From: a virus | Taxonomy: Duplodnaviria; Heunggongvirae; Uroviricota; Caudoviricetes | Strand: one strand, 5' to 3' | Virus record (IMG/VR): IMGVR_UViG_648276671_000007 | Location: 1-21,537 of that record | Length of the DNA stretch: 21,537 nt | Shown: positions 1 to 21,537 of the stretch, in pieces | Layout of the letters: every line of letters begins with the position of its first letter | Numbering within the stretch: position 1 is the stretch's first letter | Made by a program: the position numbers and the translations under genes | The notes under the pieces: model-generated | Databases searched by the model: none | Told to the model about the DNA's origin: nothing | Seen by the model: the letters and a program-made list of their open reading frames with translations, nothing else

Positions 1-160
1 CCCTGCGGGCCTTGCTCGCCCTGAGGACCGGTGTCACCTTTGGGACCTGTTTCACCCTGCGGGCCACGCTCACCCTGTGGACCCGTGTCGCCTTTGGGAC
101 CTGTTTCACCCTGCGGGCCTTGCTCGCCCTGAGGCCCCGTGTCGCCTTTGGGACCCGGTG
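1..160 (-). repeat. Tandem DNA repeat of about 54 bp encoding the collagen-like Gly-X-Y triplets of the fibre protein
   Basis: Near-identical 54-nt units are visible directly (for example ...ctttgggacctgtttcaccctgcgggcc... recurring); minus-strand translation is [14 protein letters not shown](Q/R)GPQ repeated. Confidence 0.8.
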
Positions 161-767
161 TTTTTGCTATCTCTTTCGCTTCTTCCAGCGCTATCTTCGC
201 ACCAGATTCATGCAACTCTGCATCTTTTGCAGCCTGTTCAGCACGCTCTGCATCCTGTGAAACCGAGAATACAATTTGTTCCACGTACTTTTTATCTTCG
301 GCAACCGCATCAGCGTTCTGCTGTATCTTACCCGCCAGTACCAGGCAGTCGTCCTTTATCTGCTGTGCATCAGCAACGTGTTGCCTGGCCTGTTGCTCGC
401 TTCCCGCTGCCGCTTCAGCGCTCTGCTGCGCCTGCGCCACCATTTCCTCAAATCGCTTAACAACATCCGGTTTCAGATCGCCTTCATCGAGGGCAGTCAG
501 AAAGTCATTCAGCGTTCCGGGTTGTGAGTCTTCGTAAACCGAAATATCTCCGACACAATATTCCCTTTGAATACACGACCGAAGATAAACGTCATATCTT
601 CCGTTCTGCGCCTCAAAAGCATATTCTCCTGTCGCCCCTGTCACTACTGTAGCCACCGTACTCATGACAACTGCAGATGTATTCTGTCGGGCTTTCAGAA
701 TAATATGGTATCCGGACATGGGGAGTCCCGCGCCATCAATCAGCGCACCTGATATTAATACCGACAC
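1..767 (-). CDS. Side tail fibre protein, lambda Stf-like N-terminus followed by collagen-like Gly-X-Y repeats; partial, 3' end lies beyond the left edge of the window
   Basis: Manual minus-strand translation gives an open frame from a GTG at 765-767 (AGGU 7 nt upstream) to position 3, with an internal ATG at 717-719. N-terminus ...[29 protein letters not shown]...[14 protein letters not shown]... matches the remembered lambda Stf N-terminus (MAVKISGVLKDG...IQLKARRNS...[14 protein letters not shown]). Downstream are [19 protein letters not shown] repeats. Absent from the ORF track because no stop codon lies inside the window. Confidence 0.75.
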
Positions 768-791: not shown

Positions 792-1880
792 TTAACCAAA
801 ATAATTGACGCCTTTTTTCTTGCCACTGGCTTTCCCCTTTGCAGAAATATCCGTGGCCAGCGACAAATTCAGCGTAAACCCCTGCCCCGGTGCCAGTGAA
901 AACGCCACCGACTCAGCCTGCCAGTAATGATCCTCACGCACACCAAATCCCTGCGTGATAAAACGCATTTCCGCCCCTGCTTTCAGCAGGGCCGGTCTGC
1001 AGGGCAGCGTTATCGTCATCTGGCGTCCGGCTTTCTGCACACGTTTAACCTTCGACTCTGCACAGTGTTTTGCCGTGCCCTGGTCAGGCTGGGTAAACGG
1101 ATGTCGTTTGTCTGTGGATTCAACATCCACTTTAACTTCACGCGTGCGTCCGTCACGGGCATCAAAATACCGGACACCCACTTTCCCGCTCTTTTTGTCC
1201 CCTTTTGCACCACCCGCAGCGCCCTGCCGCTCACCTTCACGATAATCCCAGTCTGATACCATTCCCGGCGTAATGGTTATCTCAGGTGCATTTCTGCCCC
1301 CTGCGCTCTGCGATGCCCCATATTCCAGAAACAACCAGTATCCACTGGTCGGTTTACTGGTGGCACCGTACATGCCCGCAATGCGGGACAGGAGGGCCGC
1401 ATCAGATTCTGACGACTGCATCACCCACGGAATATGAATATCTGCCAGCGCCGGTGAAACCCGCGCCACCAGATTATTTTCAGTGGCGATGGTTTTCACC
1501 AGATCGCCCAGCGTGATATCGCTGAAGTCCCGGGTTTTCAGAGCCGTAACATCTGCACCATGCCTGGACGCATTCATGGGGGCGGCTGTGGCATAAATGG
1601 TGATCCGGCGGGGAGGACCACCGCTTGCCACCTGGCAGACAGTAAAGCTGCCTTTATTGACCAGATTTCCGTTGAATCCCAGCCCCAGCGTTAACACCGA
1701 GCCTTTCGGTGGCAATGCCAGCGTCTCGCTGAACAGCGTTATCATCAGTTCATCGGATCGTTTTGTGGCGGCACCATTATCGGTATAACGCAGTTCAGCC
1801 AGCCCCCGCTTTATGGCCTTCGTGATATCCTCACCTTCCGCTGTCAGGCTGAAATCCGGCTGATATTCATTCAGTCCCAT
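792..1880 (-). CDS. D: P2 gpD-like tail protein
   Basis: 362-aa ORF; position at the end of the tail cluster after U and X, and similarity in pattern to remembered P2 gpD. Overlaps the upstream X gene by 10 nt. Confidence 0.8.
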   Translation of the reverse strand: MGLNEYQPDFSLTAEGEDITKAIKRGLAELRYTDNGAATKRSDELMITLFSETLALPPKGSVLTLGLGFNGNLVNKGSFTVCQVASGGPPRRITIYATAAPMNASRHGADVTALKTRDFSDITLGDLVKTIATENNLVARVSPALADIHIPWVMQSSESDAALLSRIAGMYGATSKPTSGYWLFLEYGASQSAGGRNAPEITITPGMVSDWDYREGERQGAAGGAKGDKKSGKVGVRYFDARDGRTREVKVDVESTDKRHPFTQPDQGTAKHCAESKVKRVQKAGRQMTITLPCRPALLKAGAEMRFITQGFGVREDHYWQAESVAFSLAPGQGFTLNLSLATDISAKGKASGKKKGVNYFG

Positions 1881-2089
1881 AACTGAAACGTCTCCTTTTC
1901 CTCCGGTTCATATGTCCAGTCCGGCAACACGATTTCCACGCCTGCCGGATAGACCGGGCCACGGTCAGCCAGCCCGGGATTGGCTTCCAGTACCGCCGCC
2001 AGTGACTGGTTAAGTCCGGCGCTGCCATAGTGTCTCTGACAGATGTCATCCAGCATATCGCCGTCAGTGGTCCGCCAGTTTTTCGCCAT
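1871..2089 (-). CDS. X: P2 gpX-like tail protein X (LysM-like)
   Basis: 72 aa; MAKNWRTTDGDMLDDICQRHYG...LEANPGLA...LPD resembles P2 gpX (MKTFALQGDTLDAICVRYYG...LAANPGLA). The U-X-D order matches R-type pyocin and P2-like tail clusters. Confidence 0.8.
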   Translation of the reverse strand: MAKNWRTTDGDMLDDICQRHYGSAGLNQSLAAVLEANPGLADRGPVYPAGVEIVLPDWTYEPEEKETFQLWD

Positions 2090-2558
2090 AGTATTTCAGC
2101 TCCAGTGTGAACGTTTTATTCTTCGGCGCACCGCCGGGAAGAAAGGACGTGGTGTTATCTGAATAGGCGGTCGCCACGAAATACCCCATCACATCACCAG
2201 TGCTCGAGACCAGAAGGTGCGGGGCCGGATTGTCATCCACCATCTGAACCAGTGAATTAAGGGCATCCATTCCCACACCGTCACGAAATCCTGCATGTAC
2301 CATACCGTCAAGGCTTATCGTTCTGGCGCTCTTGCCGGTATACTGCAGCAGGTCGTTCTTTCCGATAAGCTGCTGTTCGTCCCATCGCCATTCCATGGTG
2401 CGCTTCATGGCGTTATAGGCTGCCGTATCAATACTGAATTCAAACTCACCAAACGACAGCATGACGCGGGAAGCCACCTCCGTTAATGAGCCCACTGCGT
2501 CCCATGCTTCGCGCTCAAGCCGGTTTACGCCCCAGCCCAGTAAATCCACCATCTTCAC
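2064..2558 (-). CDS. U: P2 gpU-like tail protein
   Basis: 164 aa; sits between tape measure and X; C-terminal motif TFTLELKYYGE resembles the gpU family; ATGA overlap with the tape-measure stop. Confidence 0.7.
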   Translation of the reverse strand: MKMVDLLGWGVNRLEREAWDAVGSLTEVASRVMLSFGEFEFSIDTAAYNAMKRTMEWRWDEQQLIGKNDLLQYTGKSARTISLDGMVHAGFRDGVGMDALNSLVQMVDDNPAPHLLVSSTGDVMGYFVATAYSDNTTSFLPGGAPKNKTFTLELKYYGEKLADH

Positions 2559-4207
2559 CCCCAGGATTCATAACCATCAGTCATACGGGAACGCTGGCCA
2601 AAATTAATATCCCCCAGATTTTTCGTTACCCTGTCTGCCAGTTGTCCGGCATCCTCGCCGGGCTTCTGAGTGATGTTAAATTCCGCCCGTATCTGATATG
2701 TGGGTTTTACTTCCACCTGGCTGATACTGCCTGGTGTATACTGAAGAGCTGAGAGGGGATCCGAATTACCCTGCCCCGGATCTGCTGCATGAAGTCCATC
2801 AATGTAGGTGCGGGATTTCTCTTTTATCGCCTTAAAATCAGGTTCTTCTTTCGGCCCCAGCATAGGGTCGAGAAATGCATCAAACTTTTTATCGTCATGA
2901 TTCCAGGGGAGATAACTGCGCGTGTCTTTATAAGCCTGTACAACCTGTTTCGTCAGGTCCGGATTTTGCCTGAGCAGTTCATCAAACCATTCTCCCTGGC
3001 CGTTTTTCTGCGCCACCGCTCTCGCCAGCTCCGGTGACCCCATTTTTGCCAGATATTCCAGTACCTCTCGCCGGTCCTCTCGCGGACCATCTGCCAGCCC
3101 CCACTCAATGGCTTTCTGCGTTATTCCGGCAAGAACTTTTCCGAATTTCCACATCCATGCGATCATGTCGATCAGCGCCGGCAGGGCATCATCGCGGATA
3201 AATGCCCGGATTTTTTCCAGTCCACCATCCTTAAACCAGGCCGCAAGGTCATCCGTCACCTGTTGAATATGGGGTCCGAGCTCCTTCCCCAGTTGCCCGC
3301 TGATTTCATCAATGGAAGAGCTCAGAACATTACGGAGATTTGACAGCGCCATATGTCCCTGAACCGCGCCATCAGCCCCGGCCTTTGTCACCAGGTTATA
3401 GCGTTTTTGTTCGCTGATAAGCTCCCGGTAAGTTTTTCCTGACAGACGCATCCAGGTCAGAATTTTATTGGCTTCTCCACCAAACAGTGCATCTGCCATC
3501 CCCGCCGCCTGCTGCTCATCCTTTACCTGCAGTAAGCGATCAAACAAAAATTCGACCTGCTCCTGGTTGTTTTTTCCGGCCATTACACCCGCTTTCAGCC
3601 CCAGTTTGCCGAAAACATCCTGAATAGCCCCTTTATCTGATGCGCCATTGTCATCATCAAAAACCTTGTTCCGGTACTCCTCAAACAAATCACCAAAGTT
3701 TTCGCCGTTCAGCCCCATCTGTCGGCCCAGTGAATCCCACGCCACGTAGGTTTCATAGTCCACCCCGTAGCTCCGCGCTATCCCTGCCCGCTCTGCCGTT
3801 TCCGAATTCCGGTTCAGTACCGCGCTGGCACCTGCTGCCAGCATCATCCCGGAACCAACCGAAAGCCCGAGCCCGGTTTTAAGAACAGTCCCGGTCCGTC
3901 CTTTCCAGCGAGCCAGGCGCTCTGCCCGTTCAAGCTGGCGATTAAACCGCTCCTGCTCAGTTGCAGCATCATTGATTTTCCGCTTCAGCTTTTCATACCG
4001 CTTTCGCAGATCGGTAATATCCTGCCCGGCCAGCACGCCAGCCTGAATTTTTCGTTTCAGTACGTCCTGCTGACGCGTCAGGCGTGCCACTTCCCGTGTC
4101 GCACCAGCCAGACCTCGCTTCAGTCCCTCTGTCGATTTTTTCCACGACGGGTCAATGGTGCCACCGATCCGGATATTCGCTCTGAGCTTATCGCCGACCG
4201 TTGCCAT
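2555..4207 (-). CDS. T: Tail tape measure protein (550 aa)
   Basis: Long ORF directly downstream of the E/E' chaperone pair; Ala/Gly/Leu-rich central region typical of tape measure proteins; start overlaps the end of the predicted E' extension. Confidence 0.8.
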   Translation of the reverse strand: MATVGDKLRANIRIGGTIDPSWKKSTEGLKRGLAGATREVARLTRQQDVLKRKIQAGVLAGQDITDLRKRYEKLKRKINDAATEQERFNRQLERAERLARWKGRTGTVLKTGLGLSVGSGMMLAAGASAVLNRNSETAERAGIARSYGVDYETYVAWDSLGRQMGLNGENFGDLFEEYRNKVFDDDNGASDKGAIQDVFGKLGLKAGVMAGKNNQEQVEFLFDRLLQVKDEQQAAGMADALFGGEANKILTWMRLSGKTYRELISEQKRYNLVTKAGADGAVQGHMALSNLRNVLSSSIDEISGQLGKELGPHIQQVTDDLAAWFKDGGLEKIRAFIRDDALPALIDMIAWMWKFGKVLAGITQKAIEWGLADGPREDRREVLEYLAKMGSPELARAVAQKNGQGEWFDELLRQNPDLTKQVVQAYKDTRSYLPWNHDDKKFDAFLDPMLGPKEEPDFKAIKEKSRTYIDGLHAADPGQGNSDPLSALQYTPGSISQVEVKPTYQIRAEFNITQKPGEDAGQLADRVTKNLGDINFGQRSRMTDGYESWG

Positions 4208-4627
4208 AACACTGCTTCCTCTCTTCCGCCTCTGCCAGCATCATTGTCACAAAATCCTCATACGGCAGTGTCATCACATCTCCGGGTGACCACCCGAACC
4301 ATACTCCGGCACGCCGTATCGCCATCAGGATGTTTTCTTCTTCCGCCGGACCGGCGGCAGCAAAAAAACATTAAACTGCCGCTCCAGGGCCAGGTAATCA
4401 CACGCTTCCATGTTCATCATATCCGCCGCGTCCATCCCGCACAGACCGGCAATCATATCCAGATCGGCCTCAGCTTCCGGTTTGGTACTCCGCCGATGCA
4501 ACAGACGATCGCGGACGGTAGGCGCTCGCATGGTAACGTGCGTGATCGTCTGTCCTGATGCGGCGACATACGGCACGGATAACACAATTTCCACGCTGCT
4601 GGCAGGAACGCTGTTTTTTTCCGACAT
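4188..4627 (-). CDS. Predicted E+E' fusion product made by a -1 programmed frameshift at the slippery site 4361-4367
   Basis: mRNA reads AAU GUU UUU UUG CUG; heptamer U_UUU_UUG at 4367..4361. The -1 frame is open from the heptamer for about 56 codons (AAAGPAEEENILMAIRRAGVWFGW...NGRR) to a UAA at 4188-4190, overlapping the tape-measure start. Same topology as the P2 E/E' and lambda G/GT frameshifts. Confidence 0.6.
4325..4627 (-). CDS. E: P2 gpE-like tail assembly chaperone (zero-frame product)
   Basis: About 100 aa between tube and tape measure; ends ...NVFLLPPVRRKKKTS; contains the U_UUU_UUG slippery heptamer near its 3' end. Start preferred at ATG 4625-4627 (GGAG 6 nt upstream) rather than ATG 4631-4633. 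Confidence 0.7.
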   Translation of the reverse strand: MSEKNSVPASSVEIVLSVPYVAASGQTITHVTMRAPTVRDRLLHRRSTKPEAEADLDMIAGLCGMDAADMMNMEACDYLALERQFNVFLLPPVRRKKKTS

Positions 4628-4637
4628 AAGCATCTCC

Positions 4638-4667
4638 TTTAAAAAAGAAAAGGCGGCCAGAGCCGCC
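4638..4667 (-). terminator. Intrinsic terminator-like hairpin plus U-tract between the tube gene and the E chaperone gene
   Basis: Minus-strand sequence AGGCGGC-TCTG-GCCGCCT followed by TTTCTTTTTTAAA; lies between the tube stop (4688) and the E start. Confidence 0.55.
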
Positions 4668-4687
4668 TGAATGACAGGATCCCCGGA

Positions 4688-5206
4688 TTAAACCCGGATG
4701 ATTTTTTTCAGATCCGCCAGAACATTAACGCCGTTAATACGACGTACAAATTCCTCCGGAATAATGCAGATGGTTTCCACACCGTCGACAGTCTGACGGT
4801 AATAACTCAGCGACATTTCCACCGTCACCGAAGCCTCAGCCTGTGACGTTGCCGGGCGCGCATCCGGCGTGATACTGGTGATCATCCCCTGCAGGATTTC
4901 CACCTGTCCGCTGGTCGCATTCCCCACCTGATAACCCTGGCGGACAACAATCTCCGGCGAATAAAGTCCGGCCTGTAATCCCAGCAGCGTCAGCATGGCA
5001 ACATCGTAGCCATAAATTTTAAACGAGCAGGTCAGCGCTTCCATACCGTCATCCACTGCCACTGGTGCATCCATTGCGCCGGTTTTGATATCCACTGTCG
5101 TGATATTAATGGCAGGCGGCGTGTATTCATGCGCCCCCTGAAGACGGATCCCGCCAGGAAGAAATAACGCCCATGCGCGCAACAGTTTTTTTTCACCCGT
5201 AATCAT
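4688..5206 (-). CDS. FII: Contractile-tail tube protein (P2 gpFII-like)
   Basis: 172 aa immediately downstream of the sheath gene with ATGA overlap; size and position as for P2 FII. Confidence 0.8.
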   Translation of the reverse strand: MITGEKKLLRAWALFLPGGIRLQGAHEYTPPAINITTVDIKTGAMDAPVAVDDGMEALTCSFKIYGYDVAMLTLLGLQAGLYSPEIVVRQGYQVGNATSGQVEILQGMITSITPDARPATSQAEASVTVEMSLSYYRQTVDGVETICIIPEEFVRRINGVNVLADLKKIIRV

Positions 5207-6678
5207 ACCGTCAGTTCCTCCAGCGCCAGTTTATTGTTAATCATTGCCCGCAGTGTCAGGCGCTCCAGTGGTGACTTCGGCCCAAAGTCATAATCGATAT
5301 ACAACTGCCCTGCCGCCAGGGTTTCTGCTGTATTCAGTTCATCATTCAGCCAGGCGCTGCCACCGTGGATCGCACCCAGATTTTTAAGCTGACGCATATA
5401 GGCATTAATGCTGCCAAGAATGTCGTCTGCCACATCCCGATCAAGCGGGCGATCGACATAAGGCAACATGGCCTCCTGGATACTGTCCTCAATCACATCT
5501 GCAGTGCGACGTACCGACTCAAAGCGCCACTGACTGTGGGATGAGCACAGACGGTTACCCCAGTGTTTAAAACCGTCATGGCGAATAATGGTGGAGATGT
5601 TTTCCATGTTCAGCAGGTTTGCCGTGCAGTTCTGCTCCCCGAGAATAAACGTATCCACCTGCTCCAGACCGGTGATATTCATCACGTCCTGGTTTGATTT
5701 GGACCACCACCACCCTTTTTCATAATCAATACGGGCACGCAGCCCGGCAGCACGAGCCGAATATGGACGAAATACCGTTTGCCCGCTGTCATCCGTCACT
5801 GACACGCGCGGACGCAGCAGCTCCACACGCCCGCCAAATGACGCGCGCCGCTGAACCACATCCTGCGACGTTGACATTGAGGGCGAGTCAATATAGGCCA
5901 CAGCACGCAACTTCGCGGCATACGTTTCCAGCGCCTTTGCCACGCCATCATCCTCACTGTACCCCGTGGCAATGAGGATGCGCGGTTGATAGCCTGTCAC
6001 GCCCTTACTTTCTGTCAGCGCCTCCATGGCCTGAATCACCGCCGCACGCTGTTCGCCCTCTTTCGCCTTTGTTTTACTTTCTGCGCGCACCACAATCACC
6101 AGCGCACCAGTCTGGTCAAAAATATCACGCAGGGCCGGGTATAATGTTCCGGCGGTGCCCAGTTTCCCTGCCTGAGTAATGGCCCCTGCCACCACCACCG
6201 GTGTATTGACCGGGAACGCCTCATCTTCTCCGCCGGATAACGTCAGGCTGAACGGCGACACCACTTTATTTTCAGCGCCTCCTGCATTCAGAGTGCTGAC
6301 CGCCGCCGTCACAGGCGAATCCCCCAGCGCATTCACCACTTCAGTCACACGGTCAGCCGTGGCGTTAATCTGGCTGTGTTCGTCCGTCCCCAGCGTTATC
6401 GTCAGGGTTGTGCCTTTCAGCGATGCCGCTGTCTGCGCGTTTTGTTCTGTGGCAGCCACGGCAACAACCGAAATCTTATTACCGACCCGACCTTCCTGTT
6501 TCGCCGTGAAATCCAGCGCCGTTCCCAGCAGCCAGGAGCCGGCTGTGCCGGAAGCGCACACGCCACCAGAGGCGTATGGCGCTGTCCCCACCAGGCCAAT
6601 CACTGCCGTGGAGATGGTCTGCACGGCAACCGTGCCTGTCGTCAGTTCAATGGTTTCAACACCATGTAGTCCGGACAT
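5203..6678 (-). CDS. FI: Contractile-tail sheath protein (P2 gpFI-like)
   Basis: Start chosen at ATG 6676-6678 (MSGLHGVETIELTTGTVAVQTISTAVIGLVGTA), with GGGAGA SD upstream; matches the P2 FI N-terminus ([34 protein letters not shown]) and C-terminus (LYIDYDFGPKSPLERLTLR versus LYIDYDYTPVPPLENLTLR). The 541-aa ORF in the track carries an unsupported 50-aa N-terminal extension. Confidence 0.9.
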   Translation of the reverse strand: MSGLHGVETIELTTGTVAVQTISTAVIGLVGTAPYASGGVCASGTAGSWLLGTALDFTAKQEGRVGNKISVVAVAATEQNAQTAASLKGTTLTITLGTDEHSQINATADRVTEVVNALGDSPVTAAVSTLNAGGAENKVVSPFSLTLSGGEDEAFPVNTPVVVAGAITQAGKLGTAGTLYPALRDIFDQTGALVIVVRAESKTKAKEGEQRAAVIQAMEALTESKGVTGYQPRILIATGYSEDDGVAKALETYAAKLRAVAYIDSPSMSTSQDVVQRRASFGGRVELLRPRVSVTDDSGQTVFRPYSARAAGLRARIDYEKGWWWSKSNQDVMNITGLEQVDTFILGEQNCTANLLNMENISTIIRHDGFKHWGNRLCSSHSQWRFESVRRTADVIEDSIQEAMLPYVDRPLDRDVADDILGSINAYMRQLKNLGAIHGGSAWLNDELNTAETLAAGQLYIDYDFGPKSPLERLTLRAMINNKLALEELTV

Positions 6679-6691
6679 ACATTTCTCCCAT

Positions 6692-6714
6692 AAAAAAACC
6701 GCCCTTAAGGCGGT
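6692..6714 (-). terminator. Intrinsic terminator-like hairpin plus U-tract between tfa and the sheath gene
   Basis: Minus strand ACCGCC-TTAAG-GGCGGT followed by TTTTTTT, in the 55-bp gap between the tfa stop (6734) and the sheath start (6678). Confidence 0.55.
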
Positions 6715-6733
6715 CTGTTGATTAACTTCTTTT

Positions 6734-7264
6734 TCAGGTGTTCTGTGGAGGTGCTGGCCACTCAATGGCGTTATAAGACGATTCATCAGTAACCTGACTG
6801 AAATCAAGCGATTTAAGTGCCCTGGCATAAAGCAGCCATGCCTTCAATTGTTCTTTGTCATCATCACTGATAATTTCAAGAATCAATTCAGCCTTCCAGT
6901 CAGAAGTGATATCTGCAGCACGGGAATACAACCAACGTCGATGCTCTTCTGCTTTCTGCTGATAATTGACAGACTTAGGCACAATCTTTCCATCAATATA
7001 CAACCAGTTTCCATCAATTGACATCTCTGCAGGAACTGCACTGACTGCAACTTCAGCCACACTCGCGTTAACAGGAAACAAGGAGGAAACATCCTGACTA
7101 AAACTGATAATTACATTACTGTTGTCATAAACGACTTTAACCGTATCAGGAGAAAATAATTTCTGACATTCATACCAGTCCTGTCCGTCTTCAGACATAA
7201 GGTAAGATGCATTTACGAGCATGTTTTCTGGTGTGTAAGGTTTAAAACTCTTAATATTCAGCAT
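6734..7264 (-). CDS. Tail fibre assembly protein (Tfa / P2 gpG-like), copy 2
   Basis: 176 aa; ...YTPENM...SEDGQDWYE...PDTVKVVYDNSNVI...IEWPAPP resembles P2 gpG ([30 protein letters not shown]...EWPEMP). Confidence 0.8.
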   Translation of the reverse strand: MLNIKSFKPYTPENMLVNASYLMSEDGQDWYECQKLFSPDTVKVVYDNSNVIISFSQDVSSLFPVNASVAEVAVSAVPAEMSIDGNWLYIDGKIVPKSVNYQQKAEEHRRWLYSRAADITSDWKAELILEIISDDDKEQLKAWLLYARALKSLDFSQVTDESSYNAIEWPAPPQNT

Positions 7265-7281
7265 ATTTTACCTTTTGATAT

Positions 7282-7812
7282 TTAATGTGAATTCTCAGGA
7301 TCACAAGGCCATTTAATACTATCAAATGACGATTTATCATGAATGTGATTAAAATCAATATTCTTTAAATTTCTGATGTACATCCGCCATAATTTCAGCA
7401 TTTCTTTTTCCCCATTATTAATTATTCCCAGAAGTAAATCTGTTTTCTTGTCGGATATTTCCCGTTCAGCAATCGCCGTAAGACGTGCTCGTTCCGACTC
7501 AGCCAGCAGTCTGTAATCAACAGGAACCGGCAGTACTTCACCGTCTTTATAATACCAGCGCGCCTCTATACAAAAGCCATCCGGTAGTTCATCCACTTCC
7601 ACAATGGTGAAACCTGCCGGATAAAGCCGGGATACGTCTTCCGCCATTGAATAAATAACACCGGTTTCAGGATGCGTGCACAGCTTGTATTTCTTCGCGA
7701 ATTTATCCAGTGATTCATAAAAATCCTGCCCGTCTTCACTACGGAAATACTGAACACCTTCACCATAAGGCATGTTTTCCGGGTAATAACGCGTGACATT
7801 TCTGAGTTCCAT
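7282..7812 (-). CDS. Tail fibre assembly protein (Tfa-like), copy 1
   Basis: Paralogous to the neighbouring tfa (YYPENMPYG...SEDGQDFYE...IKWPCDP). Start preferred at the internal Met (MELRNVTRYYPENM) at 7812 rather than the ORF-track start at 7848. Confidence 0.75.
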   Translation of the reverse strand: MELRNVTRYYPENMPYGEGVQYFRSEDGQDFYESLDKFAKKYKLCTHPETGVIYSMAEDVSRLYPAGFTIVEVDELPDGFCIEARWYYKDGEVLPVPVDYRLLAESERARLTAIAEREISDKKTDLLLGIINNGEKEMLKLWRMYIRNLKNIDFNHIHDKSSFDSIKWPCDPENSH

Positions 7813-7826
7813 TATTTTTGCCTTAA

Positions 7827-16582: not shown

Positions 16583-18143
16583 CGCCTTTTTCTCCCGTTG
16601 TCTGTCGGATCTGCTGCTGAAACGTGTCCTTTATCCAGATGGGGCGCGGAAGACCCGCGGCCTGTCGCTCCTGACTTTCACGCAGTTGCTGGCGGAAAAT
16701 CTCCTGATAGTCATCGCCCATCAGGGCCAGCTCCTTCTCGTACGTGCTCAGGCCACCTTCAATACGCATCACCGCTTCCTGTACTTCCTTGAGACCATCA
16801 ATCGCCATGCGACCGGCACCAATCCACTCGGCACGGCACCATCCGGAACGGGCCTCCCAGAATGAGAAACGGGATTTCGGCGGGCGGATCACACCGCGAA
16901 TAAGGGCTTCCTCCAGCCAGCAGGCAAACATCTGTGATGCCAGTCGGCTGGCCACAAATTTTCGTTTGCCCATAAAATACCGCCACGACTCATTGGCGGA
17001 TGCCCTGGCACTGGAATAACTGACCTGTGAATAATCACGGGAAAGCTGTTCATAGGACACGCCCAGTCCGGCTGCGATGTAGCGTAACAGCGCTTTTTCC
17101 AGTTCAGAGAACCCATTATCCGCATTCTGCGCTGTCTGCAGATTCAGTGAATCCCCCGGATAAAGGTGTGGAATACGGACCCCGCCCAGCTTTACCGTAT
17201 TGGTGGCGTAATAACGCGCGTAGCCTTTCATGATGGTGTTCAGGGGATTTTTACCGCCATCTCCCACCCCGGCGATATATTCAAATGCTTTTTCCGAATC
17301 CAGTGTGGATTCAATCGTCGCGGCATACATTGCGCGCACCACCGCCGACTGCAGTTGCGTGGCCTGCAGTGTGTCGAGCATCTTGAGGCGCTCCATGACA
17401 GAATAAAACTGGTTGGCCCCGCGCGTCTGTCCGTCCTCCTGCGGCTGAAACACATGGATCATGCCCGGTCGCCCGGAGGGCAGCGTCGCCGCAATCCGCG
17501 TCCAGTTGCTGACACCGTAACCGGGCCAGTCATCTTCCTGAACATGGTAAGCCAGCGCTTTTCCGTACCGGTTGATTTCCACCCCGGCACGCATAAAACG
17601 ATCGCCAGTACCATAACCGGGTGTACTGACACGTTTCGGGCTGATGGTCTTGAATTTCGTCCGGAATAATGACGTGGACTCTGCATCCCAAACGGGCTGG
17701 ACAAAAACTTCACCGTTAAACGTATGAACGCCCACCCCTTCACGAATGAATTCGGTAAACGAACGACGCCCTTCCACATCCATCGTGCCAAACACCGGAT
17801 CGCAGAATTCCATCCACGCCGCCTCAACATCTTCAATAAAGGCATGTGAATCGGCTTCCGACATTCCCAGCCAGCGCCAGTTGGGCCGGTAACTCAGACG
17901 AAACATGTGTCCGACGATATGGTCTTTATGAATTTCCACCGCATTTGCGGCAATACCATTATTGCGGACCAGATCATCCGCACGGGCGTTACCCAGTTGA
18001 ATGGAAGGCAGTAGCGCCACATCGGCACTTTCCGGCGCGGGCAGCCATTCCGCAAGTTGCCCGCCAAATCCGGTACCACCTCCGGAATATCCCATACTCT
18101 GCCGCAGTGGCTGACCGTGCAGATCCACCAGTTCCCCGTTCAC
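16572..18143 (-). CDS. B: Portal protein, lambda gpB-like
   Basis: 523 aa; ...GGGTGFGGQL...ALLPSIQLGNARADDLVRNNGIAANAV...LRYIAAGLGVSYEQLSRDYSQVSYSSARASANESW...GRMAIDGLKEVQEAVM matches lambda gpB. Confidence 0.95.
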   Translation of the reverse strand: MNGELVDLHGQPLRQSMGYSGGGTGFGGQLAEWLPAPESADVALLPSIQLGNARADDLVRNNGIAANAVEIHKDHIVGHMFRLSYRPNWRWLGMSEADSHAFIEDVEAAWMEFCDPVFGTMDVEGRRSFTEFIREGVGVHTFNGEVFVQPVWDAESTSLFRTKFKTISPKRVSTPGYGTGDRFMRAGVEINRYGKALAYHVQEDDWPGYGVSNWTRIAATLPSGRPGMIHVFQPQEDGQTRGANQFYSVMERLKMLDTLQATQLQSAVVRAMYAATIESTLDSEKAFEYIAGVGDGGKNPLNTIMKGYARYYATNTVKLGGVRIPHLYPGDSLNLQTAQNADNGFSELEKALLRYIAAGLGVSYEQLSRDYSQVSYSSARASANESWRYFMGKRKFVASRLASQMFACWLEEALIRGVIRPPKSRFSFWEARSGWCRAEWIGAGRMAIDGLKEVQEAVMRIEGGLSTYEKELALMGDDYQEIFRQQLRESQERQAAGLPRPIWIKDTFQQQIRQTTGEKGDAS

Positions 18144-18349
18144 AACCCCACTCCTGCCGGGCCGCGACGCCGTCCGGATACGCCCAGCGCACTTTCCAGC
18201 TCGTCAATATACTGACGCAGTTCGCCAATCGTCGCCCGCGAATACTGAACCTGACGCCCGTCCTTGCTGACGGAAACCACAGCACGTCCGATCATCAGTT
18301 CATGTAATGCCCGGCGGGCATCACAAAGCATTTCATGCGTATAAACCAT
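18140..18349 (-). CDS. W: Head-tail joining protein, lambda gpW-like
   Basis: 69 aa; ...ARRALHELMIGRAVVSVSKDGRQVQYSRATIGELRQYIDELE...RRRGPAG matches lambda gpW ([27 protein letters not shown]...RRRGPAG). Confidence 0.9.
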   Translation of the reverse strand: MVYTHEMLCDARRALHELMIGRAVVSVSKDGRQVQYSRATIGELRQYIDELESALGVSGRRRGPAGVGL

Positions 18350-18352
18350 CTT

Positions 18353-20269
18353 TTATCCTCCACTCAGTGCAGCCGCGATTTCTTCCAGACTCATCTCATC
18401 GTCGTCCTGCTCATCTCTTCTGGCACGGGCCAGTGCTTCAAGATCAAGCTGCCACCGCTGAACTGAAATACGCAGGGCAGCATAGGCATATACCAGGCAG
18501 TCGAGGGCTTCGTTGCGTCGCCCTTTTTTATCCCACAGCAGTTTCACCCTGCCATTAACCACCTTCTCCACCAGTTCTTCCGCCACAATCTGACGCGCCT
18601 CTTCTTCCGAAAAAATGTCGGGATTATCCGGAAAACGGAAGGTATACGGGGCGGCTTCACTGGCAGAGGCCACCGGCAGGGCAAAACGGGCATACAGCAT
18701 TTCCTTGACGGTATCGGAGCCCACCTCACACAAAAACACACCACGCTGGTTGCGCTTTTTGGGCATGGTGATCACCGGCTTGCCGTACACCGATGCTCCT
18801 TTTATGGGAAGCACAAAAAAAGTGCCGTGTTTTCTGGAACGCTGATACACAATGTCCTGGTCAATACCGCCGGTATCCCAGCAGACGCGGGAAATGGAAA
18901 TTTCAGTACCGTCAGCATGGCTGTATTTTTTCCGGATCACCGCATCAACACGTTTAAGGGTGTCCTCGTCTTCCGGTCGCCCCATGATAATTTGCTTATC
19001 AATCAGAAAGGCTTCTTCGCCTGGAGCCCAGCCCCACACATAAATTTCATAGCGATCTTTCTGGGAGTCGATCCCGGCAGTCAGGTAAACCACCCGCAGG
19101 GGAACCTGCGCGCCATAGTGGCAGACTTTTTCCAGCAACAACTCAAAGCTCAGTTTTTCTGCCACGGCCTCTTCATAGGGCTCCCCGAGCGTGGTGTTAA
19201 TGAATGTCTTGACGCCGTTCGGATCCTTTAGTGCATCCAGCCAGTCATAAACAATCTGCACCCAGGTGGTGAACGGACTGTACGCTGTCCACACGTGGTA
19301 CGTGATTGAGCGCGGTGGCGGCATCTCCTCATCACCGGCGCTGTAAAATGCCAGGCCGTCGCGCGTCCACATCCCGGTATTGTCACAAATCCAGCGTCCG
19401 TCGGTCTGGTCAAGTTCCGACTGGCGGATCACACAGCCATTATGTTCACACAGGTAATACACCGTTTCCGGTTTACCCTTCTCCCATTTCAGGCCAGACG
19501 GCGTCGCATCATCACCAAACTTCAGATACTGAGCCTCCCCGCAATGAGGGCAAGGGACATAAAACCGCATGAAATGCGCAGATTCATTCGCGGCTTTCTC
19601 AATCTGACAGGAACCTTTGATTTTTGGCGTTGAGCCGCGTATGGATTTAGGCCATACCGAACCTTCGATACGTTTATCACCAAGCAGCGTCGGCGAACCT
19701 TCTTTTTCCACATCCGGTTCAAACGAGGAGAGTTCGTCATAGCAGACCACATCCACAGATTTTTCACGGTAGTTTTTAGCAGCGGCACCGCCCAGGCACC
19801 AGAAACCCACACCGGAGGAAAAACGCTTCAGGGTGAGTGTATTATCGCGGTGTTTTCTGCCCAGCCATGGAGACAACGCTTTAAGGCAGGGGACATCCCG
19901 CAATGTTGCTTCCACATGTGCTTTCATAAAATCTTCAGCTGCAGAATCTGTCGGCTGAAAAAGCAGACTGTTACGGGATTTATGCTCAATAAAATACCCG
20001 ACCACGCCCAGCAGCATTTTGGTATAACCCACGCGCGCTGATTTAATCAGATTAACAGTGCGGATCCGGTCATTACCCATGCTGTTCATGATGGCAACCT
20101 GAAACGGCAGGGTCTTCCACTCTCCATCACCGTATGACGACTCTTTAGGCAGATAATAATTTTGATCAGCCCATTCAACCGGCGTCACCGGCAATGCCCT
20201 TATCAGTGGCTGCAATGCGGCTGTGACGGCGATCATCATATTATTCAGTTGTAGTTCGGATATATTCAT
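18353..20269 (-). CDS. A: Terminase large subunit, lambda gpA-like
   Basis: Start preferred at the internal MNISELQL... (ATG ending at 20269), matching lambda A MNISNSQVN...; long collinear similarity (TPVEWADQNYYLPKESSYGDGEWKTLPFQ..., RVGYTKMLLGV..., DKRIEGSVWPKSIRGSTPK..., CPHCGEAQYLKFGD...). Overlaps the 3' end of Nu1 by about 29 nt, as in lambda. Confidence 0.95.
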   Translation of the reverse strand: MNISELQLNNMMIAVTAALQPLIRALPVTPVEWADQNYYLPKESSYGDGEWKTLPFQVAIMNSMGNDRIRTVNLIKSARVGYTKMLLGVVGYFIEHKSRNSLLFQPTDSAAEDFMKAHVEATLRDVPCLKALSPWLGRKHRDNTLTLKRFSSGVGFWCLGGAAAKNYREKSVDVVCYDELSSFEPDVEKEGSPTLLGDKRIEGSVWPKSIRGSTPKIKGSCQIEKAANESAHFMRFYVPCPHCGEAQYLKFGDDATPSGLKWEKGKPETVYYLCEHNGCVIRQSELDQTDGRWICDNTGMWTRDGLAFYSAGDEEMPPPRSITYHVWTAYSPFTTWVQIVYDWLDALKDPNGVKTFINTTLGEPYEEAVAEKLSFELLLEKVCHYGAQVPLRVVYLTAGIDSQKDRYEIYVWGWAPGEEAFLIDKQIIMGRPEDEDTLKRVDAVIRKKYSHADGTEISISRVCWDTGGIDQDIVYQRSRKHGTFFVLPIKGASVYGKPVITMPKKRNQRGVFLCEVGSDTVKEMLYARFALPVASASEAAPYTFRFPDNPDIFSEEEARQIVAEELVEKVVNGRVKLLWDKKGRRNEALDCLVYAYAALRISVQRWQLDLEALARARRDEQDDDEMSLEEIAAALSGG

Positions 20270-20747
20270 TGAGTAACTCCGGCAATTTATCCCCTGTCCG
20301 CGCACACTGATTCGCTCCCTTTGCGATAAGGGTTTTCAGATAATCAATATGACGCGGCGTTAAATCCGGGAACTGTCGCTGCATGGATAAAGGAATGGAA
20401 TCAAGCGTACTGGACAACGCCATTGCCAGTTTGCTGAGAGCGAAAACGCAGAACGCTGAATCGATGAGCTTACCTTCGGTTACCTGATTTTTAAGTTTTT
20501 GAGCTACGGCCTGTTCTTCCGTCAGTTCAGCTCTGGCCCGGAGTAATCTTTCCTCCAGATCGCTCCCGTCATCAGGTGCTCTCTGATTGTGTTGCCGTCG
20601 CTCGCGATCGATTTCCAGTACGGTTTTAACGTCATAAAAAACTTCCCTCCCCCGACGCTCAACAGGAGGAACGCCCCATTTATCAAATGCCTGAACGGAT
20701 ATACCGATGGAGGAGGCCATATCGCTTTTATTCAATAAACAGGCCAT
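20241..20747 (-). CDS. nu1: Terminase small subunit, lambda gpNu1-like
   Basis: Start preferred at ATG 20745-20747 (MACLLNKSDMASSIGISVQAFDKWG..., like lambda Nu1 MEVNKKQLADIFGASIRTIQNWQ) with GGAGAGGAG directly upstream. The ORF-track start at 20786 is a TTG. Confidence 0.85.
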   Translation of the reverse strand: MACLLNKSDMASSIGISVQAFDKWGVPPVERRGREVFYDVKTVLEIDRERRQHNQRAPDDGSDLEERLLRARAELTEEQAVAQKLKNQVTEGKLIDSAFCVFALSKLAMALSSTLDSIPLSMQRQFPDLTPRHIDYLKTLIAKGANQCARTGDKLPELLNEYIRTTTE

Positions 20748-20779
20748 CTCCTCTCCATAAGCCATCGATAAAAAGTGAT

Positions 20780-20990
20780 ACAACAACCTTGTATTTTTAC
20801 TAAACCATTTGATTTAATTAATGTTTTTAGCATCAACCACATCAAAAAGCATCATCAGGTTGTTGTATTTATTTCTCTTTCTTCTTAATTATCAATGAGG
20901 TACGACAAACAATTAAACAACAACCCCCCCTCAAAAAATCTCATAAATAGCGCGTTTTTGCGCGTCTACAGACCCCCGGTGTTTCAGATT
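20780..20990 (-). other. Putative cos region (cosN/cosB-like) upstream of Nu1
   Basis: Minus strand reads ...ACACCGGGGGTCTGTAGACGCGCAAAAACGCGCTATTTATGAGATTTTTTGAGGGGGGG..., resembling the lambda cos junction ...ACGGGGCGGCGACCTCGCGGGTTTTCGCTATTTATGAAAATTTTCC.... A 10-bp inverted repeat ACAACAACCT (20780-20789) / AGGTTGTTGT (20858-20867) lies between it and the Nu1 start, where lambda has Nu1-binding R sites. Confidence 0.5.
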
Positions 20991-21245
20991 CCGGAAAGGA
21001 CCCGTGAAAATGATAACAATTATCAATTGAAGTAAAGCCCGGCTTCTTCCACCATCGCACCGGACAGGCGACCATGAAGGGACAACTCCGTGCTTTGTTT
21101 ACGCAGCAAGTCCTGGTGTGTATCGTTTTTGATTATTCCCGCACACTCGCGCAGAAGGTGTTCCCGTCAGGCTACGGTCTCTGTTAATGGGGGAATACGG
21201 CGACAATACGGCGCACAGAAATAAATCAGGAAAGGACAACCGATT

Positions 21246-21509
21246 TTATGTGATCACCCAGCTCTTTCCGTCCGCCCCGGTCTGTACCAGCGTTACGCTG
21301 CTTTCTGTGACCGTGGATGACGGCAGTCCTTCGCTTTCACCTTTTGGGGTGATGAGCACATTGTTGCTCGCTGGCTCTATCGTGATGGTTCCCGCATTGT
21401 TCGCCACTATCTGCACCGTATTACCGGTGCTGATTGCCGCATCCGGAATAATCACCCTTCCGCCACGGGAGCCAGCAGGAAAAGTAAACATATGAAGAGA
21501 CATCTTCAT
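21246..21509 (-). CDS. Hypothetical small protein upstream of cos (unknown function; coding status uncertain)
   Basis: 88-codon ORF in the late-operon orientation with no recognised homologue and a weak SD. A competing plus-strand pair (21074..21187 and 21187..21495) overlaps it, so which strand codes is unresolved. Confidence 0.25.
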   Translation of the reverse strand: MKMSLHMFTFPAGSRGGRVIIPDAAISTGNTVQIVANNAGTITIEPASNNVLITPKGESEGLPSSTVTESSVTLVQTGADGKSWVIT

Positions 21510-21537
21510 CACTCAGTGTCACCGTTCCGTCATCCCC

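Follow-up and report, generated by a model that had tools for sequence, protein, structure and literature searches.

The locus analysed here is a 21,537-nucleotide stretch of DNA (positions 1 to 21,537 of the IMG/VR virus record IMGVR_UViG_648276671_000007; hereafter, the window), in which genes for a phage head adjoin genes for a contractile tail. Electron microscopy has shown the Vibrio phage Valp1 to be a myovirus whose head measures 60 nm and whose contractile tail measures 90 nm (PMC11054321). Between P2 and the HAP1-like telomere phages, such as VP882, PhiHAP-1 and VHML, the V and F tail operons are the only shared part (PMC2771037). For the Wolbachia phages WO, head, connector/baseplate and tail modules have been described against lambda, P2, T4 and Mu (PMC9203015). 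Lambdoid phages are already known to exchange modules, and phages that combine a lambda-type head and a P2-type tail are known as well; the locus introduces no new principle.

Gene content of the window

The window is very probably the virion-building block of an Escherichia coli lambdoid prophage, consisting of lambda-type head and cos packaging genes and an R-pyocin/P2-type contractile tail. All credible genes were on the minus strand, packed tightly or overlapping, from approximately position 20750 to the left edge of the window (Table 1). Plus-strand open reading frames (ORFs) antisense to well-supported genes were taken as spurious. When the proteins of the STEC711 prophage (92.9% identical) were mapped onto the window, all 25 were present, collinear and full length, with 70–99% amino acid identity. 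The ORF and protein mapping reproduced the gene content, order, coordinates and strand of a first-pass annotation of the same DNA. No early genes were found within the window, and both an Rfam scan and a tRNA scan of it were empty. No deposited phage genome matched the full length of the window at the DNA level, and a literature search for a lambda-like head paired with a P2-like tail, in such wording, returned no paper.

The collinearity of Nu1, A, W, B, C, D, E, FI and FII with the lambda head operon, proposed in the first-pass annotation, was supported by Pfam, by pairwise identity and by PDB matches, which agreed with one another. All nine head families (Nu1 to FII) scored above the curated Pfam cut-offs. 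For the comparison with PDB sequences, the head proteins were searched as one concatenated query.

The head and cos packaging module ran directly into a contractile tail module of the P2/R-pyocin type, again as proposed, with support at the level of profiles, pairwise comparisons and structures. The description of the tail genes as being in P2 order was right for the gene families and for their order except at X, which lies between U and D as in R-pyocins, whereas in P2 it follows L. Nine components of pyocin R2 were matched: PA0615 by profile, and PA0617, PA0618, PA0619, PA0622, PA0623, PA0626, PA0627 and the hub directly. Judged by gene order, the label 'P2/R-pyocin-like' is accurate, and the pyocin is the exact template for the order of the tail genes. 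The extent first assigned to the block (792–20747) covered its core, but the block continues past position 792 with a Stf-type fibre gene from approximately 767.

Several observations weigh against a functional virion block. In the window copy, FI is fused to FII, which could impair head completion, and this copy may thus be defective. The equivalent of cosN differs from lambda at most positions, and the cut site is thus only predicted. The link between the 240-amino-acid (aa) junction protein and gpZ is remote, with no signal by hhalign, and the model of this protein has no solved-fold match. Finally, terminator-like hairpins lie inside the block, for which a single uninterrupted transcript is assumed.

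An alternative, which we consider improbable, is that the tail half is a domesticated R-pyocin-like tailocin beside a decaying head remnant, with no complete virion being produced. Although the stretch from the terminator to D is collinear with PA0615–PA0628 of pyocin R2, and the FI–FII fusion is a possible sign of decay, the head, neck and tail genes were all full length compared with those of the relatives. Moreover, W, FII and the Z-like protein, which a tailocin would not need, were conserved at 84–99% across most relatives, and no lysis or regulatory cassette was found between the head and tail blocks. The STEC409 element resembles an intact lambdoid prophage in that it has Q, stx2k, lysis genes and an integrase, and the syntenic phage Valp1 makes complete myovirus particles. 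A block encoding a complete virion, with a lambda-type head on a contractile tail, is therefore preferred; it would be the late morphogenesis operon of a temperate lambdoid phage with myovirus particles.

Table 1. Predicted features of the window, ordered from the cos region to the left edge.
Feature	Positions	Strand	Evidence
Lambda-type cos region	20929..21028	-	Alignment to joined lambda right and left ends
Nu1, terminase small subunit	20244..20750	-	Pfam Phage_Nu1 E=9e-22; 36% to lambda Nu1
A, terminase large subunit (gpA type)	18356..20269	-	Pfam GpA_ATPase and GpA_nuclease; 64% to lambda A
W, head-tail adaptor (Ad1)	18143..18349	-	Pfam gpW; PHROG 75; PDB 1hyw E=3e-13; 50% to lambda W
B, portal	16575..18095	-	Pfam Phage_portal_2; lambda portal 8k38 E=6e-210; 62% to lambda B
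C, S49 prohead protease with scaffold-like C-terminal repeat region	15107..16582	-	Pfam Peptidase_S49; 55% to lambda C
D, head decoration	14733..15065	-	Pfam HDPD; phage 21 SHP 1td3 E=6e-49; also lambda gpD; 54% to lambda D
E, major capsid	13636..14661	-	Pfam Phage_cap_E; lambda gpE 7vi9 E=2e-126; 59% to lambda E
FI, DNA-packaging chaperone	13220..13582	-	Pfam Packaging_FI; PHROG 92; lambda FI match by profile only
FII, head closure/head-tail joining (Hc1)	12818..13219	-	Pfam Phage_attach; PHROG 82; NCBIfam tail_join_FII; PDB 1k0h; 35% to lambda FII
gpZ-family neck protein (Neck1/tail completion), 240 aa	12115..12834	-	PHROG 27 E=6.5e-26
Tail terminator (collar), PA0615 family, 188 aa	11552..12115	-	Profile match to R2 pyocin collar PA0615; PHROG 1072
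V, baseplate spike	10945..11565	-	NCBIfam phage_P2_V; PDB P2 gpV 3qr8 E=1e-10; 4s37
W, gp25-like sheath initiator	10555..10908	-	Pfam GPW_gp25; PA0617 E=1e-14
J, baseplate wedge	9666..10577	-	Pfam Baseplate_J; PA0618 E=6e-54
I, baseplate wedge	9083..9670	-	Pfam Tail_P2_I; PA0619 E=3e-16
H, tail fibre with tail-collar N-terminus	7830..9083	-	Pfam Phage_tail_fib; C-terminal part 40% to P2 H, matches Mu S and PhiTE fibres
Two tandem tail fibre assembly genes (tfa)	7285-7812 and 6737-7264	-	Both Pfam Caudo_TAP; 37% identical to each other
Tail sheath, 491 aa	5206..6678	-	Pfam sheath domains; PA0622 E=2e-52; 63% to yong2
Tail tube	4691..5206	-	Pfam Phage_tube; PA0623 E=1e-11
E and E+E' tail assembly chaperones	4188..4627	-	Pfam Phage_TAC_7; reading frames and slippery site
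T, tape measure, 550 aa	2558..4207	-	PHROG 3654 and tape-measure PHROGs; 40-42% to same-position yong2/Chris1 protein
U (pyocin 'ripcord' homologue)	2067..2552	-	Pfam Phage_P2_GpU; PA0626 E=9e-12
X (pyocin 'glue' homologue)	1874..2089	-	Pfam Phage_tail_X; PA0627 E=1.6e-7
D, baseplate hub	795..1880	-	PHROG 52; Pfam Phage_GPD below cutoff; pyocin R2 hub 6u5h_C E=7e-16
Second tail fibre, lambda Stf type, N-terminal part with collagen-like repeats	3..767	-	Pfam phage_tail_N (PF08400) E=5e-55 and Collagen

Neck proteins at the head–tail junction

The junction between the two modules (12834 down to 11549) had been read as encoding lambda-type head and tail completion proteins and had been singled out as the place to look for adaptor novelty. 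The first of its two ORFs encodes a gpZ-family neck protein, in line with that reading. The second is not a lambda-type tail completion protein but a PA0615-family tail terminator, on the tail side of the junction.

The 240-aa protein that follows FII falls into the same PHROG as lambda gpZ, which is the basis on which its earlier description as Z-like can be retained. PHROG 27 ('tail completion or Neck1') also takes in lambda gpZ (E=3e-69), a WO protein that carries the gpZ annotation and the corresponding protein of yong2, and Pfam Minor_tail_Z was matched by 6 of 52 homologues of the 240-aa protein. The relationship is only remote: comparison of the 240-aa family with lambda gpZ gave no BLAST signal and, with gpZ as a single sequence, none by hhalign. 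The AlphaFold2 (AF2) model of the protein was confident, with a predicted local distance difference test (pLDDT) score of 85. A Foldseek search of this model against the PDB returned nothing significant, and its matches in BFVD, to predicted minor tail and HK97 gp10-like proteins, were weak or modest. Designed repeat proteins, the sole matches in a profile search of the PDB, were rejected as spurious. 'Z-like' stands as a putative family assignment at remote distance.

With tblastn, phage relatives of the 188-aa protein were detected in Hafnia yong2, Citrobacter Chris1 and Vibrio Valp1, in many of the Wolbachia WO phages and in some records derived from E. coli prophages. Its group, PHROG 1072, is annotated as 'unknown function'. 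When the PDB was searched with the single sequence, the one match was weak, to 'Collar PA0615' of pyocin R2; a profile built from 74 homologues matched PA0615 over the full length (E=5.7e-32). The best Foldseek matches of its AF2 model (pLDDT 90.8) were, in order, the pyocin collar, the Mu terminator, cyanophage A-1(L) gp7, T5 p142, lambda gpU and the P2 gpR-like structure 2gjv. Because the profile match to PA0615 was accompanied by a matching predicted fold, the protein was identified as a tail terminator and assigned to the tail module, whose collinearity with the pyocin begins there, at PA0615. A scan of a species-representative genome collection seeded with the terminator protein confirmed nothing.

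With these assignments the canonical four-protein neck was complete, comprising PHROG 75 (Ad1), PHROG 82 (Hc1), PHROG 27 (Neck1) and a terminator identified by profile and fold. In the comparison of the window proteins with P2 and lambda, lambda gpU and P2 L, R and S were absent. P2 R, S and L fall into PHROGs 65, 26 and 71, whereas their counterparts in the window belong to PHROGs 1072, 27 and 75.

It is very unlikely that the junction encodes a new kind of adaptor that fits a lambda head to a P2 tail. Neither junction protein matched Pfam or NCBIfam, and the model of the 240-aa protein resembled no solved fold, but both proteins belong to existing PHROGs (27 and 1072), and the 188-aa protein is homologous to the solved pyocin collar. 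WO, Valp1, yong2 and Chris1 all have this pair of proteins in front of a tail of the same kind, and in Valp1 the set of W, FII, Z-like and PA0615-like neck proteins already stands before the same tail, contrary to the adaptor novelty anticipated at the junction. The neck is an ordinary set of adaptor, head-closure, Neck1 and terminator proteins, with no new adaptor. For two 'hypothetical proteins' of dozens of E. coli genomes, names and likely roles can now be given, namely a gpZ-family neck protein and a PA0615-type terminator.

Recurrence in genomes and Stx2k prophages

At least 80% of the window was covered at 92–94% identity in 28 complete E. coli genomes. The two junction genes were present in 78 of 5,426 complete E. 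coli genomes, and the FI/FII joint was present in 75. In IMG/VR, the junction was found in 34 contigs, and the terminator was 94–98% identical in 27 contigs. A contig from another assembly matched the window at 99.4% identity over the stretch between D (decoration) and the tail chaperone. The guanine–cytosine (GC) content was continuous across the junction, where the genes abut or overlap. That the window is an assembly chimera, a possibility raised in the first-pass annotation, or a chance juxtaposition of a lambda-like head region and a P2-like prophage or tailocin is so improbable as to be negligible: the two halves do differ in their closest model phage and no deposited phage genome matches the entire window at the DNA level, but a chimera is refuted because the same junction recurs in independent closed genomes (78, with at least 80% of the window covered in 28), as it does in the 99.4% identical independent contig and the 34 IMG/VR contigs, and the junction genes overlap or abut with even GC content and have the same order in Valp1.

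In STEC711 (L001) and STEC409 (L044), a near-identical module came after a lambdoid Q, stx2k and a lysis cassette, and before a Stf-type fibre gene. In STEC409, a tyrosine integrase gene beside dusA follows the Stf-type fibre, and the STEC711 copy adjoins a truncated ompW. This arrangement agrees with that of a published group of Stx2k prophages; the paper on this group does not mention tails or tail genes. The morphogenesis genes of Stx2k-converting prophages specify a contractile tail resembling that of R-pyocins, which bears on the host range and receptor use of these toxin-carrying phages.

Exchange of head and tail modules

Relatives were found in which one half of the module was retained and the other was replaced. 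Contig L026 has the same tail and another head: its Z-like, terminator and tail proteins were 91–98% identical to those of the window, whereas its large terminase, portal and FII shared only 26%, 23% and 41% identity, respectively, and homologues of C, D, E and FI were absent. The head region of L026 was similar to that of Chris1 (74–75% nucleotide identity), and similarity to the window began at approximately 12900, inside the 3' end of FII.

The reverse combination, the same head with another tail, was found in approximately 20 IMG/VR contigs, in which D was 90–93% and E 94% identical to the window. The three of these contigs that were aligned at the DNA level had 88–94% nucleotide identity from 20187 to approximately 13464, inside FI. 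The contigs with the same head continued into lambda-type FII, Z, U, V, G and H (42–61% identical to lambda). In contig L071 the tail was almost identical to that of lambda (89–93%), and the switch was located at approximately 13196, the FI/FII boundary. Three contigs with the same head continued into a second, divergent contractile-tail module. D and E were together present at 90% nucleotide identity or more in 105 complete E. coli genomes, compared with 78 genomes that had the neck of the window.

The head core extends from A into the first third of FI and is exchanged among no fewer than three tail modules. FII and the distal part of FI vary with the type of tail downstream. We conclude that the combination in the window arose by ordinary lambdoid module exchange, with crossovers in FI–FII, and that this exchange crosses the divide between siphoviruses and myoviruses. 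The joints at which E. coli lambdoid prophages swap heads and tails, including contractile for non-contractile tails, were thereby mapped in FI and FII. More tentatively, and with a confidence that stops somewhat short of calling it probable, the C-terminal half of FI and FII, being co-inherited with the tail, may determine how a head is matched to a tail terminator; the set of prophages would then be a natural experiment on the rules by which heads join tails of different morphotypes, and Stx2k-converting phages would be contractile-tailed.

Fusion of FI and FII in the window copy

The stop codon of FI was lost at 13215–13235 (minus strand), which places FI in frame with FII (…GLAEKNGV-MMFDNL…). 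In all 16 relatives examined, FI ended as …GLAEKIRE followed by a stop codon. The change at the end of FI, from GAAAAAATCCGGGAGTGATG to GAAAAAAACGGGGTGATG, consisted of one substitution and two single-base deletions beside an A-run. Across the FI/FII joint, an exact match to the window was absent from all 75 complete E. coli genomes, and the 37-mer spanning the FI–FII junction of the window had no match in the species-representative genome collection. The fusion could be a genuine lesion private to this prophage copy or an error of sequencing in a homopolymer region.

cos region and head genes

A cosQ-like sequence (GGGTCCTTTCCGG) was located at 20991–21003 by alignment to the joined ends of lambda. 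A conserved CGCTATTTATGA was present at approximately 20941–20952, just inside the left end, and its spacing to GGGTCCTTTCCGG was nearly as in lambda. The predicted equivalent of cosN, at approximately 20962–20974, had 12 bases diverged from lambda, and lambda cosN (GGGCGGCGACCT) was absent from the window with up to 2 mismatches allowed. Since a near-exact lambda cosN was absent, the assignment of the cos region rests on the conservation of the flanking sequences. Packaging of the predicted cos type is well supported, and the cohesive ends and the cut site are themselves predictions from the sequence.

An element of approximately 80 nucleotides resembling cosQ/cosN was kept at 84–90% identity in L026 (1889–1962) and L052 (1511–1591), in which the Nu1 region was unrelated at the DNA level. 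In L026, it was conserved despite a large terminase with only 26% identity. This pattern suggests that a shared cutting-site region may be used with differing specificities of the small subunit. Among the relatives, the identity of Nu1 ranged from 38% to 97% and varied independently of the head core.

The scaffold-like C-terminal part of C contained a 138-nucleotide tandem repeat at 15229–15599 (2.7 copies, 83% matches). The C protein of STEC711 has one extra repeat unit (538 aa, compared with 492 aa in the window), and the copy number therefore differs between relatives. GC-rich hairpins resembling intrinsic terminators were found on the minus strand at 14685–14709 (after D), 13609–13629 (after E), 6696–6716 (after the second tfa gene) and 4651–4668 (after the tube gene). 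Three of the four were followed by T-runs; the hairpin after D was not. These hairpins may act as attenuators or as stabilizers of messenger RNA within the late transcript. Upstream of the cos region, an 88-aa ORF at 21249–21512 (minus strand) had no Pfam match.

Tail and fibre genes

The tip of the window V protein is rich in histidine (…NGHNHRGD…) and resembles the apex of P2 gpV. A PAAR gene follows V in WO and Valp1, and none was found in the window. The GC content fell to 0.41–0.43 over 6500–8000, a stretch comprising the distal part of H and the two tfa genes. Among close relatives, identity ranged from 48% to 98% for H and from 28% to 82% for tfa, and STEC409 had a single tfa gene. The distal H and tfa stretch is a hypervariable host-range cassette.

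The chaperone gene E contained a −1 slippery sequence (T TTT TTG) at approximately 4361–4368, in its 3' part, upstream of the E stop codon at 4328. The −1 frame of E' ended at approximately 4188, just past the start of T, which it overlaps; this is the arrangement of E/E' in P2. The Stf-type fibre gene extends beyond the left edge of the window. Its STEC409 counterpart is complete (667 aa), with a gene for a DUF4376 protein after it. At the DNA level, the fibre gene of the window matched those of phiP27 and Rac-SA53.

Proposed assembly of the virion

In the assembly pathway that we propose, the shell would be built from B (portal), C (S49 protease/scaffold), E (capsid) and D (decoration). The terminase Nu1/A would cut at the lambda-type cos site, aided by FI, and the portal would then be closed by W and subsequently by FII. 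The tail would be assembled separately. Its baseplate would comprise the V spike, the D hub, U, X and the W, J and I wedges, and H fibres would be folded by the tfa chaperones. The tape measure T, together with the E/E' chaperones, would set a short tube, the sheath would wrap around it, and the PA0615-type terminator would cap it. The gpZ-family protein would finish the end of the tail, and the FII-capped head would dock on the terminator.

We infer both this order and the contact between FII and the terminator. In lambda, gpFII and gpU are neighbouring parts of the connector. A lambda-type head could plausibly use such a tail because the terminator keeps the gpU-like core fold that is bound by FII-type proteins. 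Expression would likely proceed by read-through from a single Q-dependent late promoter; in the relatives, Q is located upstream.

Comparison with known systems

The R2 pyocin (PA0615–PA0628; PDB 6u5b, 6u5f, 6u5h, 6u5j and 6u5k) has the components from collar to hub in the same order as the window. Unlike the pyocin, which has no head, neck or packaging genes, the window has a full set immediately upstream in the same orientation. The sequences are distant, and the sheath of the window (491 aa) is approximately 100 aa longer than that of the pyocin (386 aa).

For every gene of the P2 tail operons V-W-J-I-H-G and FI-FII-E-E'-T-U-D, the window has a homologue (23–47% identity) in the same within-operon order, and the −1 frameshift chaperone E/E' is shared. 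In P2, X sits in the head/lysis operon, whereas in the window it is located between U and D. P2 R, S and L are replaced in the window by the PA0615-type terminator, the gpZ-family protein and gpW/FII. The P2 head genes Q, P, O, N, M and L and the completion genes R and S had no match in the window. A further difference from P2 is that, in the relatives of the window, the block lies downstream of a lambdoid Q.

With lambda and phage 21, the window shares the order Nu1-A-W-B-C-D-E-FI-FII, at 35–64% identity to lambda except for FI, which was matched by profile only. At the nucleotide level, phage 21 and related lambdoid phages were approximately 75% identical to the window from approximately 20537 to 13633, the end of E, and no further. 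The lambda tail proteins gpU, V, G, T, H, M, L, K, I and J had no match in the window, and the C protein of the window carries extra 46-aa repeats compared with that of lambda.

The closest deposited phages for the neck and tail were yong2 and Chris1, with identities of 32% for FII, 40–42% for the Z-like protein, 50–53% for the terminator and 61–63% for the sheath. Their head differs: the large terminase was 25% identical, and a single long ORF annotated as a Clp-type protease replaces C, D and E. The order of their tail genes is V-sheath-tube-E-T-U-X-D-W-J-I-H.

Wolbachia WO phages have A-W-B-C-D-E, a small unassigned ORF in the place of FII, a gpZ-family protein, a PHROG 1072 terminator and V-PAAR-W-J-I. 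The sequences are very distant from those of the window, with 25–44% identity where homology was detectable. In contrast to the window, the tail module of WO is located elsewhere in the genome, and WO carries a eukaryotic association module.

Valp1 has the whole virion module in the same order as the window, from the small terminase to the D hub, including Hc1, Neck1 and the PA0615-type terminator, with a small ORF between capsid and Hc1. Identity to the window was 27–53%, and Valp1 has PAAR and one extra gene after V. Valp1 has a protelomerase, as do the HAP1-like telomere phages, and it also carries ParAB and lives as a linear plasmid prophage, whereas the relatives of the window are integrated lambdoid prophages. 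The window shares the synteny of its virion genes with the HAP1-like group, but in place of the protelomerase and partition genes, its relatives carry an integrase, Q and lambdoid early genes.

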